Positions 612 to 8,014 are shown, counted from the stretch's first letter. The stretch is 64,000 nucleotides of DNA from a bacterium (GCA_021788365.1 JAJYKS010000001.1:70113-134112); one strand, 5' to 3'. The notes: generated by a model not told the origin, from the sequence alone. Program-made: numbers and translations.

Positions 612-1541
612 TTACCACGGAATGCGGAAAACCAGGCGGAGCAGAAGCGTGTGGAAGAGATAGATGGGGTATGACCATATGCCGAGCTGCACCAGCGGGC
701 GCCAGGACTTGAACGACCCCTCGCCAATGCAATGCGCGAGTGTAAAGAGTGCCACAATGGCGAACCCGGCGTAGACAAGGGTCCCTATCTCGGTAAATCG
801 CATGGCGATAATGGGGTCTACCCCGCTCCCCACAGCTTGAATGGCACCTGTAGCAACAAACAAAAAGGATACGGCCGTGGCTATGTAGAGACTACTACGT
901 GTTGCGCTTGATTGTGTGAGATGGCGATGGATACGGGGGAGGTGCATGCCGAGCACATAGTAGAAGATCCAAGTGAAAAACCAGCGGTATTGCTCCTGAT
1001 CGTTCCCGAGAACCGTTGCGTGTGCATAGAGCCACCACTCAAAAATAAAGGCGGCGGCGAGTGATATCCACGGCAGTTTCTCGACGAGCTTTTTTACCAA
1101 GGGAAAAAGGAGATAGAGCTCGAAGATCATGGGGACAAAATAGAGCTGGTAGTCGGCGCTACCCCGCACGAGTTGCAGCCAGAGCGGCCCGACATCCCCC
1201 AGTGCTTTCCACGAGGGGATAAAGAAAAAGATGAGGTTAAACAACAGGCTAGCGCCAATATAGAGCGGCAGTAATTTGCCCGCTTGGCGCTTGACGAAGT
1301 CCCAAAAATGGAACGGAACTCCCTGATATTTTTGCCAGAAACTATAGCCAGAGAGGGCAACAAAGAGGGGGACGGAGAAGCGGGAGAGTTGGTCCAGACC
1401 GATTGCGACCCACGACCAGCCGGATGAGGGATAGTAGTCGCCGTGGATACTCGAGAGTGTGTGGATTGCAAGAACGGCGAGTATGGCGAGACCGCGTAAA
1501 ATATTGTTGACGAACGCGTCGCGCGCGGTGGGTTTGGCCAT
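612..1541 (-). CDS. acyltransferase family 3 (OafA-like) integral membrane protein
   Basis: 309-aa ORF with about 10 hydrophobic helices; N-terminal motif ILRGLAILAVLAIH and overall layout match acyltransferase_3 family. Confidence 0.6.
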   Translation of the reverse strand: MAKPTARDAFVNNILRGLAILAVLAIHTLSSIHGDYYPSSGWSWVAIGLDQLSRFSVPLFVALSGYSFWQKYQGVPFHFWDFVKRQAGKLLPLYIGASLLFNLIFFFIPSWKALGDVGPLWLQLVRGSADYQLYFVPMIFELYLLFPLVKKLVEKLPWISLAAAFIFEWWLYAHATVLGNDQEQYRWFFTWIFYYVLGMHLPRIHRHLTQSSATRSSLYIATAVSFLFVATGAIQAVGSGVDPIIAMRFTEIGTLVYAGFAIVALFTLAHCIGEGSFKSWRPLVQLGIWSYPIYLFHTLLLRLVFRIPW

Positions 1542-1747
1542 ATCGGATTATTATACGGTGAAATGTGAGGCTACCAAAGGGAGCAATAATGAGTGTCGAG
1601 AAGGAGCGAAGAACCTTGAACCACCTGACGGGCTCTCAGATGCCATCCGTAAAAGCTGGGATAGCAGTATCCTCAAGAGCGATCTTTTTTCTCGAGAAGA
1701 GGACAGGGTCTTGACTTCCCGGACTTATAATAAGGCTAGTCTATCAT

Positions 1748-1984
1748 ATGAATACTAATACGTCGCACCAGATCAGCCAGCTAGCTACCCCACCGTTGAG
1801 TGCGAGTAGTGCGTCCGAAATTGCTACTACTCCCCCCTCTCCCATTACACGCTTAGTCCAGTCACTACTGACTGTGGATGTGCATGCGGCAGACGCGATA
1901 GCAAATGCAGTGAGCGTCGACAACGGGTCGGGTCAGCGTATCGAGCTTAGCCACGATACCCCTGGACCAGATTTCATTAAGTAA
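1748..1984 (+). CDS. hypothetical small protein (weak call)
   Basis: 78-aa ORF in a 470-bp intergenic gap; Ser/Ala/Thr-rich, no obvious RBS. Confidence 0.2.
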   Translation: MNTNTSHQISQLATPPLSASSASEIATTPPSPITRLVQSLLTVDVHAADAIANAVSVDNGSGQRIELSHDTPGPDFIK

Positions 1985-2013
1985 TTAAGAAGTAGTAGCT
2001 TGAACCAGTACAC

Positions 2014-2739
2014 TTATTTAGCCAATCTAGCCCTTCCCCCCACCATGACATATAGTCCCTCGAGATGCCGGGAATAGATCACCGAACCTTTTCCATGATG
2101 TATTTCGATAGGTTCAGGGGTGTTTTCCGGCTGTAGTTCCAGTGCTAAGAGCATACTTCCCGAGCCGTTCGCCTCGTCCTCTGGTATGCCCCAGTCTGGA
2201 GCAAACGTTCGCGCCCTGATGCTCGCCCCCTCTTTTATCCAAGCCCATGAGACAGTATGTTGCTTTGTGGCGGCTTGTTCTACTGTAATTGCCTCCACTT
2301 TAGCTGGTGATGCTAATTGTTCAACATTCCAGTGTGGTAGGTGAGTTTTGTTTGTCCTAACCCAGAGTAGGTTGTCTTCCTCAACCACCTTACTCACCTT
2401 GCCCATACTTAGGACCGTGTCGGTATGTATGTGAGATATGTTACGTGCGTACCAGGCAGCTCCGAGGATGGCGTGACCGGCAAAAGCTACTTGTTCTTGG
2501 GGGTTGTGGATGGTTACCCGGAGAGGGTTTAGCATGTCGACGAAGACTGACTCGCTATACCCCAGATCTATGGCAATCTCTTGCCTCTCGCCCATACTTA
2601 GCTTGTGGTCAAGGTCAATGACTATACCGACAGCGTTGCCATACTCATCATGCTCATCGACAAAGACGTTTACTGTATGTGATTCGTGGTTACTTGGCTG
2701 ATACGTCATATGTAAATAATACCAGTAGCTGCTGCTCAC
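2014..2739 (-). CDS. PhzF-family (phenazine-biosynthesis-like) isomerase
   Basis: N-terminal HTVNVFVDEHDEYGNAVGIV resembles the PhzF VDAFT..GNPAAVV signature; the two-lobed length fits. True start may be the internal Met (MTYQP) at about 2709. Confidence 0.55.
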   Translation of the reverse strand: MSSSYWYYLHMTYQPSNHESHTVNVFVDEHDEYGNAVGIVIDLDHKLSMGERQEIAIDLGYSESVFVDMLNPLRVTIHNPQEQVAFAGHAILGAAWYARNISHIHTDTVLSMGKVSKVVEEDNLLWVRTNKTHLPHWNVEQLASPAKVEAITVEQAATKQHTVSWAWIKEGASIRARTFAPDWGIPEDEANGSGSMLLALELQPENTPEPIEIHHGKGSVIYSRHLEGLYVMVGGRARLAK

Positions 2740-2829
2740 ACAATCCTGAATTCCAAGTGGTACAATTGCAACATATCAGCCACATAGGCCGCCACAAGCG
2801 GTCTTTTTTGTTATAAGGGGGTGATTTAC

Positions 2830-2970
2830 ATGAAAGATAAGATCAGAGAAAAGCTTTGCAGTGTATGTCGAGCTCAATATGATAATCATGTGCCGCTTTG
2901 GATATGCGCACGGTGCGTTAAAAAGGTTTTCGGCGAGAAAACACCTAAACGTACAACTAGTGAGCAGTAG
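2830..2970 (+). CDS. small zinc-ribbon protein (46 aa), absent from ORF track
   Basis: ATG at 2830 preceded by AAGGGGGTGA RBS; MKDKIREKLCSVCRAQYDNHVPLWICARCVKKVFGEKTPKRTTSEQ has CxxC...CxxC. Confidence 0.35.
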   Translation: MKDKIREKLCSVCRAQYDNHVPLWICARCVKKVFGEKTPKRTTSEQ

Positions 2971-3092
2971 AGAGTGGGATTACATACCAAGACACCAATT
3001 AGACTTAAATGCGTGACAAAAATAGTCCGTGTCGTTCTACCAGCATAAGATGTGATGCGCATGCCCATTGTCTTGTGCCGTGGCTTTTTAGT

Positions 3093-3635
3093 CTAGGTTT
3101 CTTTGTTTTTCTTGAGTTGTGTGCCGGAGGTTATGGGAGGCGATGGTATAAATGGGAGGGTGTCCTTTCCCTCCCAATGGAATAGTCCAAATAGACCACT
3201 AAGTTTCTTGCCCTTGTCGATCAGCTGGTCTAGGTACAAAGCAAGTATCCCGATACTTACAAGTGTAATGGATTCTTGAGATAGTTCCTTGCGATAGAAA
3301 ATGTCAAAACCGACGACAAGAAATATTACCGTTACAATTGCTTCCTTATATTTCATTAGTATCTGTAGGGGAATAAATACCGTCTGCACAATTTGTCCAT
3401 ATATCGGTGTTACCATGACAATTAGAGCTTCTACTGGTGACACTTTCATAGCGTTACGGTATTCCCCTGTGGGTGGATCGTTGCTTTCTGGTGGTTTCTG
3501 TTCGGTGATATATATATGTTTCATTTTTCCAAACCACTCGGGAGGAAATAGTGGCAAAATACTCAACAGCCCCAACCCTAGTGGAACCCAGTTGTTCATT
3601 AGAAAACTTATAAGCAACGCATTCCCGTTTACCAT
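3093..3635 (-). CDS. hypothetical integral membrane protein
   Basis: 180-aa ORF with 4 predicted TM helices; no recognisable family motif. Confidence 0.4.
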   Translation of the reverse strand: MVNGNALLISFLMNNWVPLGLGLLSILPLFPPEWFGKMKHIYITEQKPPESNDPPTGEYRNAMKVSPVEALIVMVTPIYGQIVQTVFIPLQILMKYKEAIVTVIFLVVGFDIFYRKELSQESITLVSIGILALYLDQLIDKGKKLSGLFGLFHWEGKDTLPFIPSPPITSGTQLKKNKET

Positions 3636-3716
3636 AATGGCTTTATTTTACCAGTATCGTCTATGCTCAGTTTTATTTTGGCTTGACATAGACCCACTAT
3701 ACTTACATAGGAGTTT

Positions 3717-4187
3717 ATGTCGAATATAGATTGGCAGGCTGCACGGACAAAGTACATAACTAGCGGGTGTACTCTTGAGGAAATTTCCCAAGACTTCGGG
3801 TGTGACCCTAGCACGGTCAGGCTTCACTCCGCGATGGATAGGTGGGTAGATGCTCGAGAGGAAGCGCAACAAAAGGCCAACAAAATCACTACAGAAAAGG
3901 CTGCCGAGGACTTTGCTGAGATAAACCTAAGGCATGCAGAGTACGGCCAATACCTCCAACACCAGGCTTTGGCTTCCCTGTTAGACAAAGAGCGTCCAGT
4001 AGCCCCTAAAACTTTCTCAGAGGCTCTCTCTGCCCTCCGCGATGGCGTGAGGATCGAACGATTGGCCCTTGGCATGGATGAGGACAAGGGGTCTAAGACA
4101 GCCTGTGAGGTCGTGTACGTGCCTCCAACGTGGTATAAGCCACCTTCTGAGCCTACTGAGGTAGACGAGCCAACGAAAGTTGCGTGA
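3717..4187 (+). CDS. phage terminase small subunit-like HTH protein (could alternatively be an RDF-like DNA-binding protein)
   Basis: MSNIDWQAARTKYITSGCTLEEISQDFGCDPSTVRLHSAMDRWVDAREEAQQKANK follows the Terminase_2/P27-type N-terminal pattern (W..A...Y..G.S..EIA..FGV..STV......W...R); acidic C-terminus. Confidence 0.45.
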   Translation: MSNIDWQAARTKYITSGCTLEEISQDFGCDPSTVRLHSAMDRWVDAREEAQQKANKITTEKAAEDFAEINLRHAEYGQYLQHQALASLLDKERPVAPKTFSEALSALRDGVRIERLALGMDEDKGSKTACEVVYVPPTWYKPPSEPTEVDEPTKVA

Positions 4188-4194
4188 CGGCTAT

Positions 4195-4962
4195 TTATTG
4201 AGCTACTGCAAAGTTCACCGTACTTAACCCCGAAATGGTGATCTCATCACCATTTGTTAGGCTTACAGAGACGCTTGGCACCCCACCGTACTTTGTGTCA
4301 CCGCCTAGTATCTCATTGTACGAGTCAGCTCCCGACACTATGAAGTTTCCACTGTCTCCAGTTCCAGGAGTAACCATGTACCTACCAGCAGCAATGTCTT
4401 CCCCCACAGTGAACGTGCCAGCATATAGCTTTACGGGGCCGTATGCCTTCACAAATGGCGTGGTAACGGGAGTAAAGGTTACTTTGCTTAGACCGGAAAT
4501 TTTGATGCTGTCACCACCGCTTACCTTAACTCGCACTTTTAATACACCGCCCGCAGCGCCGGCACTGCCCAAGATTTCATTGTATGAGTCGGCGCCAGAC
4601 ATGATGAAATTACCGCTTTGGCCAGCTCCTGGCGTCACGTCATATAAGCCTACTGCCACGTCAGTGCCTCCAGTAAACGTACCAGCCCCGATTGTTTTTG
4701 CCGTTCCTACTACCTGTCGCTCGGCTGGTTGATTCGAGGGAGAAGCCTGAGTCTCAGAGGATGTCGTGGAGTTATTTCCCGTCGCGTTCGTGCTTTTGTT
4801 TCCGGAGTTCCCAGAACTCGCCACCATGGAAATTAGGATTATTGCGATAATGCCGGTTATGATGGGGTGTCGGACAAACCAGATTCTTTGATCTGCTTGG
4901 CAGTGGGGACACTTCTTTGCCTTGTCGTCTATGTCCATACGGCAACTTTTACACTTCTTCAT
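4195..4962 (-). CDS. Zn-ribbon / single-TM anchored surface protein with two tandem ~80-aa beta-rich repeats
   Basis: Start at internal Met: MKKCKSCRMDIDDKAKKCPHCQ (CxxC..CxxC), then a TM helix (IITGIIAIILISMVA), an S/T/N-rich linker, and two repeats sharing G.Y.VTPG.G.SGNFI.SGADSYNEILG....V.VS...GD.I.ISGLS.V.F. The repeat is visible at the DNA level at roughly 4200-4455 and 4456-4716. Confidence 0.5.
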   Translation of the reverse strand: MKKCKSCRMDIDDKAKKCPHCQADQRIWFVRHPIITGIIAIILISMVASSGNSGNKSTNATGNNSTTSSETQASPSNQPAERQVVGTAKTIGAGTFTGGTDVAVGLYDVTPGAGQSGNFIMSGADSYNEILGSAGAAGGVLKVRVKVSGGDSIKISGLSKVTFTPVTTPFVKAYGPVKLYAGTFTVGEDIAAGRYMVTPGTGDSGNFIVSGADSYNEILGGDTKYGGVPSVSVSLTNGDEITISGLSTVNFAVAQ

Positions 4963-5094
4963 ACTCTGTCCCTCCAGGCAGTACCTGCTATATATTGAGC
5001 GTAGCAAATTGCTATCTATAGTCAACACCTTTGCTTAAATGAGACCTTTATGTGACAGTGAGCTAGATTTCTCCGGAATCGATGTTGATTCTTC

Positions 5095-5679
5095 CTAGAA
5101 TAGCGGATGCGCGTTTTGGTCTAGATAGACGCTTATAGTCATATTTATCCCTGGAGGTACTCCTTGGAGCATAAACTTTATGCTAGACGGATTTAATGGC
5201 CAGGACTTAATAATTTCTTGGAACAGCTCGTCCACGTCAGCTAGATGAATTTCGTATACATTTCCTTGTATTTTGCGATCCTCCTCCCACTTTTGTTTTG
5301 GCATGACACTGGTTATTAGCGAAACGCTGTCACCGTTTTTATAGTTGGGGTAACGTATCTCTTCCCACCTGTGGATGTCTTTAACAGTTGCGTCAAATTT
5401 GGATAGTGACTGTTTGTCTGTCGTCCGCTTGTATTCTTCCCATAGCTTAGGTAAGTTGTGTCCAAACTTCTCGTATAGTTCTTCGGGAGTATATGCGCTT
5501 TCCTTGTAGAGCAACCTACCTTTTATTAGCATCTCGATGCCATGATGGAAAAGATTGCCGGCAACTGGAGATAGCGAGCAGAGATTGGCAAATCTTCCCG
5601 ATATGTAGTACTGAACGCCTATGCGCAGGTACTCACTCCATCTGGTGGACAGATACTTCACGCCATTCTTTGACCTCAT
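5095..5679 (-). CDS. hypothetical cytoplasmic protein (possibly HEPN-like)
   Basis: 194-aa ORF. N-terminal GRFANLCSLSPVAGNLFHHGIEMLIKGRL is vaguely reminiscent of HEPN R-x(4-6)-H helices; no firm family assignment. Confidence 0.35.
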   Translation of the reverse strand: MRSKNGVKYLSTRWSEYLRIGVQYYISGRFANLCSLSPVAGNLFHHGIEMLIKGRLLYKESAYTPEELYEKFGHNLPKLWEEYKRTTDKQSLSKFDATVKDIHRWEEIRYPNYKNGDSVSLITSVMPKQKWEEDRKIQGNVYEIHLADVDELFQEIIKSWPLNPSSIKFMLQGVPPGINMTISVYLDQNAHPLF

Positions 5680-5756
5680 ATTCTCCCCCTTTAGTGCTAT
5701 TTTCTCACGATAGGTGGGGTGGTTTACAAGTACTGGGGCTATAATGCGGTCAAAGT

Positions 5757-7307
5757 ATGACTATGAATACGGATGAGGTCGACGTCACAAAACTTCGATA
5801 TGTCCTTTATGCCAGGAAAAGTACCACCGACGAATCACGTCAGGTACGATCTATTCCGGACCAGATACGTGAGTGCAAGGAGCTGGTTACTAGGTTAGGT
5901 TTGCACATCGTAGGGAAGCCCCTACAGGAGACTCAATCCGCTAAACTTCCTAGGAAGCGACCTATTTTCCGACAAATGATTTCCGACATTAAACAAAAGA
6001 AGTATGACGGCATCCTCGCTTGGAATCCGGACCGTTTAGCTCGTAACATGCTGGAGGGTGGCGAGATTATTGACTTGATAGATCAGGGCATAATTAAAGA
6101 CCTTAAGTTCGTCACGCACCACTTTACCCCTGATGCCAATGGCAAAATGCTGCTTGGTATGGCCTTTGTTTTGTCAAAACAATATAGTGATGACCTCTCG
6201 CAAAAGGTCACTCGAGGAGTTCGGGCTAAATTTGCTGAGGGAAAGGGATCTGCACCCAAGCACGGTTACGTTCGGGATAAAGATGGTTACTATCGACCAG
6301 ACGGCAAAAACCATCGTTTGATAAAAGATGCTTGGCATATGAGGGTTGAGGGAAAATCCATCCTCGATATTGTTGCACATATGAACCGGGAAGGTTACGG
6401 GAGGAAGGTTAAGAAAACCGGAAAACAGGTAAAGATGAGTAAGCAGACGCTTAGTAGCATCTTCCACGACACGTTTTACTACGGAGTTTTAGCGCAGGGG
6501 GGAGAGACTATCGACCTTAGGAGCCAATACGACTTCGCTCCAGCGTGTACTGAAGCTGACTATAATGCTGTCCAGCAACTTGGCTATAGGAGAATTAAAC
6601 CGTCAAAGCCTCATACAACAGCTTTTTATCCCCTACGTCTTATGGTTTTGTGTTCGCATTGTGGACGAACTATGCGGGTAGGACCTTCAACGGGTAGGCA
6701 GAAGCGTTACCTTTACTTCCGTTGCGATAACCCGGAATGCAGTCGTAGCCCACGCTCAATCCGGTCAAAGATCGTGTTTGACTTTATCTACGGCTTACTT
6801 GCGGACGGATTGCCTCTAACTAAGGCGGATTATGACGAATATTCTAAAGCCCTGATCGCCCAGGCGGACGCGAAACGCCAAGAGCTGACTGTCGAGCTTC
6901 ATAAGCTACAGGCACAGTTAAAGGTTGTAAAGGCAGAGATACGTGATCGATCACTCAAAATCGTTAAGTTCGACGAGAAGAGCATCCCGTATAAGGAAAA
7001 CCTCCGTCGCATAGATGAGTTAGACGGACAAAAACATGACGTTCTCAGCAGATCTACGGCCATTGCACAACAATTAACCGACCCGGAATCTGACCGCCTT
7101 ACTATTGAGCAGTTCTTGAACCTAGCAAAAAATGCTGGTGCTATCGTTAAAAGTGGAAATGCCGTGGCAAAGGACACAATTTGCCGGTTGATTTTCTTGA
7201 ACCTGACTGTAGACACCGAGAAAGTCACGTCATATCAATTAAAAGAGCCATTCGCTACCCTACTGAAAAGCCGTAAAATCCTACCTGGTCGGGGTGCTGG
7301 GAATTGA
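5757..7307 (+). CDS. large serine recombinase (resolvase/invertase N-domain, recombinase domain, zinc ribbon)
   Basis: LRYVLYARKSTTDESRQVRSIPDQ catalytic-Ser resolvase motif; recombinase domain; C-terminal zinc ribbon CSHCGRTMRV...YFRCDNPEC with coiled coil. The last 22 nt overlap tRNA-Pro in antisense. Confidence 0.85.
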   Translation: MTMNTDEVDVTKLRYVLYARKSTTDESRQVRSIPDQIRECKELVTRLGLHIVGKPLQETQSAKLPRKRPIFRQMISDIKQKKYDGILAWNPDRLARNMLEGGEIIDLIDQGIIKDLKFVTHHFTPDANGKMLLGMAFVLSKQYSDDLSQKVTRGVRAKFAEGKGSAPKHGYVRDKDGYYRPDGKNHRLIKDAWHMRVEGKSILDIVAHMNREGYGRKVKKTGKQVKMSKQTLSSIFHDTFYYGVLAQGGETIDLRSQYDFAPACTEADYNAVQQLGYRRIKPSKPHTTAFYPLRLMVLCSHCGRTMRVGPSTGRQKRYLYFRCDNPECSRSPRSIRSKIVFDFIYGLLADGLPLTKADYDEYSKALIAQADAKRQELTVELHKLQAQLKVVKAEIRDRSLKIVKFDEKSIPYKENLRRIDELDGQKHDVLSRSTAIAQQLTDPESDRLTIEQFLNLAKNAGAIVKSGNAVAKDTICRLIFLNLTVDTEKVTSYQLKEPFATLLKSRKILPGRGAGN

Positions 7308-7359
7308 ACCCAGGCCTGACGCACCCCATGCGCCAATTCTACCGTTAAACCACACCCCG
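7286..7359 (-). tRNA. tRNA-Pro (anticodon GGG)
   Basis: Reverse complement is CGGGGUG-UG-GUUU..GAAU-U-GGCGC-AUGGGGU-GCGUC-AGGC-CUGGG-UUCAAUU-CCCAG-CACCCCG-A-CCA. The acceptor stem is a perfect 7 bp, the T arm is canonical, U33 and G37 are present, and CCA is encoded. D stem is weak (G.U, U-A, U-A, U.G). Coordinates may be off by 1. Confidence 0.75.
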
Positions 7360-7372
7360 AATAGAACAGGTG

Positions 7373-8014
7373 TTATTGTAGCATGAGGTAGGTGTGAATT
7401 TCCTGGAGATTGTCTATCGCACGCCCACCAGCTGCCCGAAAAACGTCTTTCGCCGTGGTATGTCCTGCAATTGCTAGAAACTGTATTCCTGCCATTCCTG
7501 CAGCTTGGAAATCAGTGAGTGCGTCTCCTATGTATAGTAATTCATTACGCACTATTCCACGGTCACTAAAATACCTGCATATCGGGTCAAAAACCCGGGG
7601 ATCGGGCTTGTGCACCTCTGTATCATCGGCGGTCTGAATGTACAAAAATGATCCTTGATCCACTCCTGCCTCTTCTAAGGCGGCATGGGTTAGTCGTCTG
7701 TTGGCTGCAGTCACGATTCCAAGTGGCAAGCGTCTGCACAGTTCGGCTACGACTGCGTGTGTTTCTGGGTATGGTGGTATGGGAAAATCACTGGTGATTG
7801 TGTAGTAATTGTTGAGGATGTTCTCAAGTTTATCGATATTGCCGTAGATACCTGCGACCATCTCCTCGAACGGTTTTCCCCAATGTTTATCGATATCTTC
7901 ATCTGTTAGCACTAGGTTGTAGAACTTTTTGGCTGCGTGTTTGTGAGCTGCGTATTTGGCAAGACGCGTTTGGATGAGCGTGTCGTCCATGTCGAAAACA
8001 ACGGCTTTTACCAT
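7373..8014 (-). CDS. HAD-superfamily hydrolase
   Basis: MVKAVVFDMDDTLIQT (DxDxT motif I), later GD motif. Confidence 0.7.
   Translation of the reverse strand: MVKAVVFDMDDTLIQTRLAKYAAHKHAAKKFYNLVLTDEDIDKHWGKPFEEMVAGIYGNIDKLENILNNYYTITSDFPIPPYPETHAVVAELCRRLPLGIVTAANRRLTHAALEEAGVDQGSFLYIQTADDTEVHKPDPRVFDPICRYFSDRGIVRNELLYIGDALTDFQAAGMAGIQFLAIAGHTTAKDVFRAAGGRAIDNLQEIHTYLMLQ

Follow-up and report, generated by a model that had tools for sequence, protein, structure and literature searches.

An integrative element at tRNA-Pro(GGG) whose own large serine recombinase gene is probably split by integration

Introduction

What occupies the tRNA-Pro(GGG) gene of this locus, how far does it reach, and how was it inserted there? 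The window, i.e., the whole stretch of 64,000 nucleotides analyzed here (GCA_021788365.1, JAJYKS010000001.1:70113-134112), carries a gene for a large serine recombinase (LSR) that runs into the 3′ end of this tRNA gene. The original prediction placed an integrated island at 3640-7359, which might be a decayed remnant or might extend further left. We compared the window with conspecific contigs and with related LSR loci. The results make it quite probable that the locus holds a 5.69-kb integrative element, that its own LSR inserted this element at the 3′ terminus of tRNA-Pro(GGG), and that integration split the LSR gene in two. The window genome is probably of the Patescibacteria type, as judged solely from the taxonomy of the LSR relatives.

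Results

Empty sites and junctions

Contigs with an empty site were retrieved by means of the exact HAD-hydrolase protein that flanks the tRNA gene (window 7373..8014). In three conspecific contigs (L012, L015, and L018), the acyltransferase gene, at 612..1541 in the window, comes immediately after the HAD gene and the tRNA. The alignment of these contigs to the window runs from the right down to 7288 and resumes at 1598, with an overlap of 4 bp (GTCG), which is the sole sequence common to both junctions. Comparison with genomes lacking the insertion, as had been proposed, thus defined attB, and alignment of the empty-site and occupied contigs gives an insert of 5,690 bp (window 1597..7289) if the crossover is GT. 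An LSR-driven element at tRNA-Pro(GGG) was therefore correctly foreseen, but its extent was not. The suggestion that it might reach left past PhzF and its neighbors was borne out, as the PhzF-like gene, a 78-aa gene, and a 162-nt piece of the LSR gene all lie within the insert. The junctions and the target are as follows.

7286..7359, minus strand: tRNA-Pro(GGG), the integration target (ARAGORN; Rfam tRNA body 7289..7359)
1570..1622: attL, host B arm plus element P′ arm; core GTCG at 1595..1598, probable crossover GT at 1595..1596; junction ...aataatgagtGTCGagaaggagcgaag...
1597..1622: P′ arm of attL, with TTGAAC at 1616..1621
7262..7314: attR, element P arm (LSR codons ~503-511) plus tRNA B′ arm; core GTCG at 7288..7291, probable crossover GT at 7288..7289, antisense T-loop TTGAAC at 7304..7309; junction ...atcctacctgGTCGgggtgctggg...
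Empty site: attB junction ...aataatgagtGTCGgggtgctgggaattgaaccc...

Both alleles were observed in one sample, ERZ27237563 (L005 occupied, L012 empty), and the same attB is occupied by a second cargo variant in conspecific strains. The window is 100% identical to contig DAHXIW010000001.1 of GCA_027372535.1 (L010); island copies in other assemblies are 99-100% identical, and all of their open reading frames (ORFs) are intact. The GC content of the island (0.468) equals the window mean (0.465), and composition therefore gives no signal.

As had been reported, no clean direct repeat is present: copies of the tRNA 3′ end were searched for in the 64-kb window with up to three mismatches and none was found, and a repeat scan gave no long repeat. 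The repeat is absent because the integrase is an LSR and not a tyrosine integrase. A serine integrase leaves the 2-bp crossover and fortuitous identity (here, GTCG), whereas a direct repeat of the tRNA 3′ end is the expectation for a tyrosine integrase. The weak match ttgaacc..cctgacg, already noticed at 1611-1640, proved real, being the element-side (P′) arm of the left junction.

Read on the tRNA strand, the core is CGAC, in which CG are the two final bases of the acceptor stem, A is the discriminator, and the second C is the start of the CCA end. With the crossover on the discriminator base and the first C, the tRNA stays intact. No base changes up to and including the discriminator; the alleles read ..GACAC (empty) and ..GACCAgg (occupied), indicating that the CCA end of the occupied state is supplied by the element (..CCCCGACCA vs ..CCCCGACAC in the empty site).

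Two further observations concern the flanks. The acyltransferase gene has a promoter-like site (1577..1550, minus strand; TTGGTA-16-TATAAT, 10/12 match) within the 56 bp of host DNA between attL and the gene start. It stays on the host side, and therefore the acyltransferase gene may not need the read-through from HAD and the tRNA that the island displaces; in the promoter and terminator scan, matches were no better than chance. Three island-bearing metagenome contigs (L003, L007, and L009) end at window ~7313-7317, a few bases into the tRNA, which would fit an assembly graph that branches because occupied, empty, and variant alleles are present together.

The recombinase and its detached tail

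Three features are needed here.

5757..7307, plus strand: LSR, integrated (truncated) form, 516 aa (Pfam Resolvase, Recombinase, Zn_ribbon_recom)
1597..1758, plus strand: tail exon, the detached 3′ piece of the LSR gene; 53 codons plus stop, no start codon of its own
1748..1984, plus strand: orf78, 78 aa, whose ATG lies within the last codons of the tail (Y-E-Y)

By every criterion that could be tested, the window enzyme is an LSR. The catalytic domain was matched at residues 16-163 (PF00239, E 2.1e-21), and the recombinase and zinc-ribbon domains scored above their cut-offs (PF07508, 28.6 bits against 21.1; PF13408, 26.1 bits against 25.3). Among 36 homologues, S22 and R20 of the YARKST motif and the zinc-ribbon residues C299, C302, C323, and C328 are invariant. 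The AlphaFold model of one homologue, P0098, showed the long helices of a coiled coil (356-402 and 410-439) and, in Foldseek, matched the full-length Bxb1, PhiC31, and LI integrases (E 1e-19 to 1e-10); a sequence search of the PDB matched the catalytic domain only.

The LSR gene does end within the 3′ end of tRNA-Pro, as first noticed: the last 22 nt of the 516-aa ORF are antisense to it. Residues 1-511 are encoded by the element, and residues 512-516 (RGAGN) and the TGA stop come from the tRNA antisense strand. The natural stop is elsewhere. When 5757..7291 is joined to 1599.., as in an excised circle, a 564-aa ORF results with a new 53-aa tail (REGAKNLEPPDGLSDAIRKSWDSS...SLSYEY), in the frame of the mechanical ORF 1459..1758. 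Thus, attP lies within the LSR ORF, 53 codons before its stop (reconstructed attP joint ...AAAATCCTACCTGGTCGAGAAGGAGCGAAG...; attB ...AATAATGAGTGTCGGGGTGCTGGG...). Integration therefore leaves at attR a 516-aa enzyme that ends in tRNA-antisense codons, and it moves the 53-aa tail, with the overlapping orf78, to attL.

Homologue P0098 (558 aa) carries the long tail unsplit, with an intact attP and no tRNA nearby, and its tail aligns without gaps through the junction to the joined tail of the window. The tail was next searched for in forward frames upstream of the LSR gene in 80 related loci, with two tails as the query and then with a hidden Markov model (HMM). An open tail segment of ~50 codons was found in 18 of them, always on the LSR strand, in phase, and 3-7 kb upstream, starting right after xGT-CGA and ending with Y-x-[YF]-stop. 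In all 15 elements with both junctions, the tail exon is open and in phase. For more distant loci, a DNA signature was used (GT-N19-T[TC]GAA[CT], then an open frame of 35-75 codons). It gave 13 loci with 35-47% LSR identity whose cores agree with the adjacent tRNA, some with a Leu- or Ala-tRNA as the target and one in the Nanosynbacter sp. TM7-008 complete genome, where the predicted element spans L036 3973..11528 (attP joint ...ATCAATTCTGGTGCAACAAAAGCG...); two more matches lacked core agreement, about the chance expectation. An exhaustive HMMER search of 1.8 billion representatives with the tail profile returned 30 proteins and no full-length unsplit LSR beyond P0098. Nearly all are orphan ORFs of 41-91 aa, which are tail exons miscalled at attL. 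A word-indexed protein search with the tail alignment returned five small ORFs only.

We then analyzed codon use in the tail. The first ~11 codons are kept even at third positions (CGA 13/18, GCG 15/18, CTT 12/18, and GAA 18/18) and constitute the attP P′ arm. In the middle of the tail stands the motif L-x-[ED]-S-I-x3-W-[DE]-x3-[FY]-[DE], of which the Trp is invariant. Its residues are fixed and third positions are free (Ser as TCA, TCC, TCT, or TCG; Leu by five codons); mean entropy there is 1.51 at codon position 3 against 0.91 at position 2, and the ratio of nonsynonymous to synonymous substitution (dN/dS) is 0.36-0.66 in the measurable pairs. Conserved residues, free third positions, and dN below dS thus indicate that the tail is probably a translated and selected peptide, which would be made only with attP intact.

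The alternative that survives best is that the stretch after attP encodes no functional tail and answers only to DNA constraints, namely the attP arm and the promoter and start of orf78, the layout being one of compaction. The arm codons fixed at third positions (GAA and GCG, as counted above) fit this alternative, as does the YN..YEY-stop end, which is TATAAT-N7-ATG of orf78 in about 9 of 13 islands. The AlphaFold tail is of low confidence, and its sequence identity is ~30% against ~60% for the LSR body. Nevertheless, the middle motif, at 40-85 bp from the core, is farther out than any LSR att site extends, and it is here that the Trp is invariant and third positions are free under conserved residues. 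Furthermore, every one of the 19 cases found by HMM has an open frame of 45-55 codons, an outcome with a chance expectation of ~4% per case. Together with dN below dS, this makes a tail-less reading unlikely, and we retain the translated tail as the preferred one.

Other states of the gene were also observed. The P0098 locus (L100 6126..7802, also L101-L103; attP GT-N19-TTGAAC near 7657) is the only full-length unsplit member seen. Its region of at least 17 kb holds NYN, two DNA methyltransferase, Replic_Relax, DUF87, and AlbA_2 genes, and is possibly an episome or an unintegrated resting element. P0125, P0128, and P0137 were considered as unsplit junctions and rejected, since they proved to be LSR-deleted fragments on contigs of 0.8-2 kb; they are therefore no evidence of a free circle. 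In L105 (1737..1961), L106 (337..555), and the proteins P0128 and P0139, the recombinase has been lost except for its last 20-40 codons, and the tail and an intact attP are present. One of these short fragments follows a PIN-domain gene, in another the N-terminal YARKST motif is joined straight to the C-terminus, and that of L106 has a small ORF downstream. Such fragments may be decay products or non-autonomous derivatives. Two near-identical attL-like junctions with tail exons, 1.25 kb apart (L052 2554 and 3803), lie upstream of a single LSR gene and suggest a duplicated or tandem left end. The LSR frame is interrupted in L032, L055, L066, L067, L073, and L075; the tail exon is intact in L032, L055, L066, and L075, which points to recently inactivated copies.

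Attachment sites

The attP and attB sites were reconstructed for 28 elements. The attP consensus is c..T..T.AaAa......a..t..t..cTg GT cGAGat.aagcga....tcTTGAACt, with partial dyad symmetry about GT at -24, -21, and -20, and GT is therefore favored as the crossover dinucleotide. The right arm of attB is the tRNA acceptor and T-arm (cGGgG.Ga.agGAcTtGAACc). In all 15 elements that were found without the DNA motif, the distance from GT to T[TC]GAAC is 19 nt in the P′ arm and 14 nt in the tRNA, a 5-bp displacement that is assessable on one arm per site only. For LSRs, the motif of the zinc-ribbon domain has been described as 5 bp closer to the center in attB than in attP (Rutherford et al. 2013, PMC3783163). 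The window-family sites follow this spacing rule, by which LSR zinc-ribbon domains distinguish attP from attB, with the T-loop hexamer as the motif. Because the 5-bp offset is not a multiple of 3, the hexamer is read as Leu-Glu (cTT GAA C) in attP and as a stop (aaT TGA AC) in attR. With TCGAA as the T-loop, the ORF continues farther, and this accounts for LSR-tRNA overlaps of 56-58 nt.

Distribution in Patescibacteria

More than 1,200 close LSR homologues were found (55-65% identity, lengths of about 510-530), and at least 598 family loci are present among species-representative genomes. Named hosts are Roizman-, Davies-, and Gottesmanbacteria, Saccharimonadales, Nanosynbacter, and other Patescibacteria lineages. 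The C-termini have ...KEPFATLLKxRxxxSSRG in common and then diverge into AGN, ERT, or ERTRTSGLCVPNAAL before the stop; these divergent peptides read as antisense translations of tRNA 3′ ends. In 50 of the 63 related loci that could be scored for both stop and tRNA, the LSR stop lies within a convergent tRNA, of ten types (Pro 22, Leu 9, Lys 7, Ser 5, Gln 2, and Val, Asp, Ala, His, and Asn 1 each). Elements with both ends span 2.9-7.8 kb, and only the LSR, its tail, and the small gene orf78 are common to the family.

Gene content

The remaining genes of the window element are as follows.

2007..3715: variable cargo slot, exchanged between conspecific copies
2014..2739, minus strand: PhzF-like protein (Pfam PhzC-PhzF, E 1.7e-16)
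2830..2970, plus strand: possible 46-aa zinc-ribbon ORF
3093..3635, minus strand: 180-aa membrane protein
3717..4187, plus strand: 156-aa protein with an N-terminal helix-turn-helix (HTH); weak TerS/DUF1804/TnsD-like match
4195..5028, minus strand: zinc-ribbon and transmembrane protein, 277-aa ORF (phrog_32160, E 4e-36)
5095..5679, minus strand: 194-aa protein, divergent from the LSR gene; no Pfam, PHROG, or PADLOC family match

The overlapping ATG of orf78 is present in 13 of 16 islands, the window included, with the motif ..P.A.LN.[TS]SI.D..G.RIEL, and the orf78 HMM located the gene after the tail or directly upstream of the LSR gene in 25 further loci. Pfam, PHROG, and PADLOC gave no match for orf78, which may act as a recombination cofactor. 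The conserved Tyr-Asn of the tail is the TATAAT itself (window 1726..1731). It precedes the orf78 ATG by 7 nt, the spacing expected of a leaderless-mRNA promoter, in ~9 of 13 relatives, and by 16 nt in the window.

In L001, L002, L005, L006, and L007, the slot 2007..3715 is replaced by a Schlafen/AlbA_2 protein and a 136-aa protein. These conspecific variants are at least 99% identical to the window over 3716..7291 and over 1599..2006, the latter seen in L005 and L006 only. PADLOC detected no defense genes in either cargo variant. The 4195..5028 protein, called as 255 or 210 aa in other copies, has a ~90-aa internal duplication in its C-terminal domain and homologues in two related islands only, and phrog_32160 is a phage family of unknown function. 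All same-species copies have the 194-aa protein, as does one related island.

A terminase-small-like HTH gene had been predicted here. The HTH stands; the terminase-small match is below threshold (Pfam 17 bits, cut-off 22) and N-terminal only (PHROG terS families, E 4e-5, residues 1-65). The 156-aa protein is present in all same-species copies and not in the wider family, and is a possible regulator or directionality factor. Among the island proteins, no known family of recombination directionality factors (RDFs) was matched, and orf78 and the 156-aa protein are candidates only.

These genes bear on a second alternative, that of a phage satellite or cryptic miniature prophage packaged by a helper through the TerS-like HTH protein, with the LSR as integrase only. 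The small size, the integrase at one end, the TerS-like protein, and the cargo slot are as in the tycheposons that resemble phage-inducible chromosomal islands. However, the TerS match is sub-threshold and covers 65 residues; no capsid, primase, or replication gene was present, and Pfam/PHROG scans of all island proteins detected no virion, packaging, or replication genes, with matches limited to the integrase, families of unknown function, and the sub-threshold TerS-HTH. The HTH protein is moreover absent from related islands, which have only the LSR and orf78 in common. A satellite is thus somewhat less probable still than a locus without a functional tail.

Discussion

Two other alternatives fare much worse. 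A decayed or domesticated remnant, with the recombinase as a fixed chromosomal gene, an incidental tRNA overlap, and a lost left boundary, would agree with the missing direct repeat, the lack of a compositional anomaly, and the absence of replication, transfer, and virion genes. It is nevertheless highly improbable, as the insert is precisely absent from conspecific contigs, the near-identical copies have intact ORFs, cargo is swapped at the same site, and the tail exon is open in every element with both junctions. A related-genome pattern of no empty site and a conserved chromosomal recombinase, by which the original prediction would have fallen, was not what we observed, since empty sites exist. 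A classical tyrosine-type island whose distal repeat had eroded to the match at 1611-1640 would suit the tRNA 3′-end location and the partial similarity ttgaacc..cctgacg, but is scarcely credible, because the only recombinase is of the serine type, the junctions are exact with 4 bp shared, and TTGAAC is out of register by exactly 5 bp in 15/15 relatives, as for a site-recognition feature and not a decayed repeat.

Several observations weigh against the split-gene account that we prefer, or against parts of it. The excised circle or attP junction of the window element was not found in viral or JGI metagenome contigs; the single JGI match (L104) was rejected as a chance 22-mer on an unrelated GC-rich contig with no BLAST similarity. 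The empty-site strains diverge by 0.1-1.5%, and thus insertion polymorphism is proven but ongoing excision is not. Unusually for an LSR, the left arm of attB, formed by host DNA beyond the tRNA 3′ end, lacks conservation, and TTGAAC lies 2-4 bp farther from the center than the zinc-ribbon-domain motif of the Listeria enzyme. Conservation of the tail is partly at the DNA level, with the attP arm at its start and TATAAT and the orf78 ATG at its end; the last codons (YN..YEY-stop) coincide with TATAAT-N7-ATG, and this ATG starts the next gene. In the AlphaFold model of P0098, the body is well modeled, and the tail has pLDDT (predicted local distance difference test) values below 50 and one short helix (the L..AI..HW motif). 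Finally, orf78 is upstream of the LSR gene in some relatives, and state-dependent expression of orf78 is therefore not general.

Taken with these points, the split-gene account would work as follows. The LSR inserts the element at the tRNA terminus, and the gene splits as attP is in its own ORF. Its zinc-ribbon domain may read the near-universal T-arm, so that relatives could use Pro, Leu, Lys, Ala, Ser, and other tRNAs. The 564-aa enzyme would be made from the excised circle only, and the tail would thus serve the circle-to-chromosome step, i.e., integration. The resident 516-aa enzyme could be the excision form, possibly with orf78 or the HTH protein, or it could be inert. The split gene would then be a built-in sensor of the integration state, with orf78 as a putative cofactor and the slot 2007..3715 as exchangeable cargo.

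A broader proposal goes well beyond the insertion itself: that a Patescibacteria-wide LSR family reads the T-arm, has two isoforms, and uses the Trp tail to set the direction of recombination by gene architecture. We put it forward tentatively and consider it the less likely outcome. The same doubt attaches to its corollary, that such architecture controls directionality instead of, or added to, a separate directionality factor.

If these readings hold, LSRs, which are regarded as avoiding tRNA genes, would include a family that targets them habitually by a readable rule, the T-loop hexamer at attB spacing. It would add a convergent, bacterial, serine-type case of an att site within the integrase gene, in which only a regulatory-looking tail is removed. 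Two natural isoforms would make the question of serine-integrase direction testable. Little is known of the mobile elements of Patescibacteria, which are ultra-small bacteria, and islands of 3-8 kb with exchangeable cargo may be a principal path of gene flux there. Integrases that target a sequence in the tRNAs of every genome could be useful tools.

Comparison with known systems

Use of a t(m)RNA gene by a serine integrase was unreported according to Mageeney et al. (2020), and the LSR catalogue of Durrant et al. does not mention tRNA. A literature search, in which coverage of subscription journals was small, found no description of the window LSR family. It appears that neither LSR targeting of tRNA genes nor the placement of an att site within the integrase gene of a bacterium has been described before.

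The closest enzymes are the phage LSRs (Bxb1, PhiC31, Listeria A118/LI, and SPbeta), which are alike in fold and in the order of catalytic, recombinase, and zinc-ribbon plus coiled-coil domains, as well as in short att sites, the 2-bp crossover, lack of direct repeats, and the 5-bp motif shift between attB and attP. Their target is a protein-coding gene, whereas the window family targets the terminus of a tRNA gene. The family further differs in that attP is part of the integrase ORF, which gives one form of the enzyme in the integrated state and another in the free state. It also conserves only one attB arm and forms islands of 3-8 kb without phage genes or a recognized RDF.

Among tRNA islands, those found by Islander/TIGER are similarly inserted at the 3′ part of a tRNA gene that is preserved, with the integrase abutting the tRNA and variable cargo. 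They have, however, a tyrosine integrase and a displaced tRNA fragment or direct repeat, and the window element has neither. Prochlorococcus tycheposons, which we compared by description only, are likewise small cargo elements at tRNA genes of streamlined genomes; they have mostly tyrosine recombinases (27 of 937 encode an LSR) and often replication genes, and a split integrase is not part of their description.

An att site within the integrase ORF, by which integration splits the gene, is known from the SSV-type suicidal integrases of archaeal viruses and plasmids, which have been described as exclusively archaeal. These are tyrosine recombinases, and integration leaves two inactive pseudogenes. 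In the window element, by contrast, only the 53-aa tail is lost, and the 516-aa form keeps all recognized domains, the catalytic and DNA-binding ones included.

Dependence of expression or of the protein form on the circular or integrated state is also shared with Tn4451/Tn4453 and with BPs-like phages. For TnpX of Tn4451/Tn4453, the promoter is assembled only at the circle joint. In mycobacteriophages such as BPs, attP lies in the repressor gene and integration removes a C-terminal tag (integration-dependent immunity). In those systems, a promoter or a repressor is altered, whereas in the window element it is the C-terminus of the recombinase itself.

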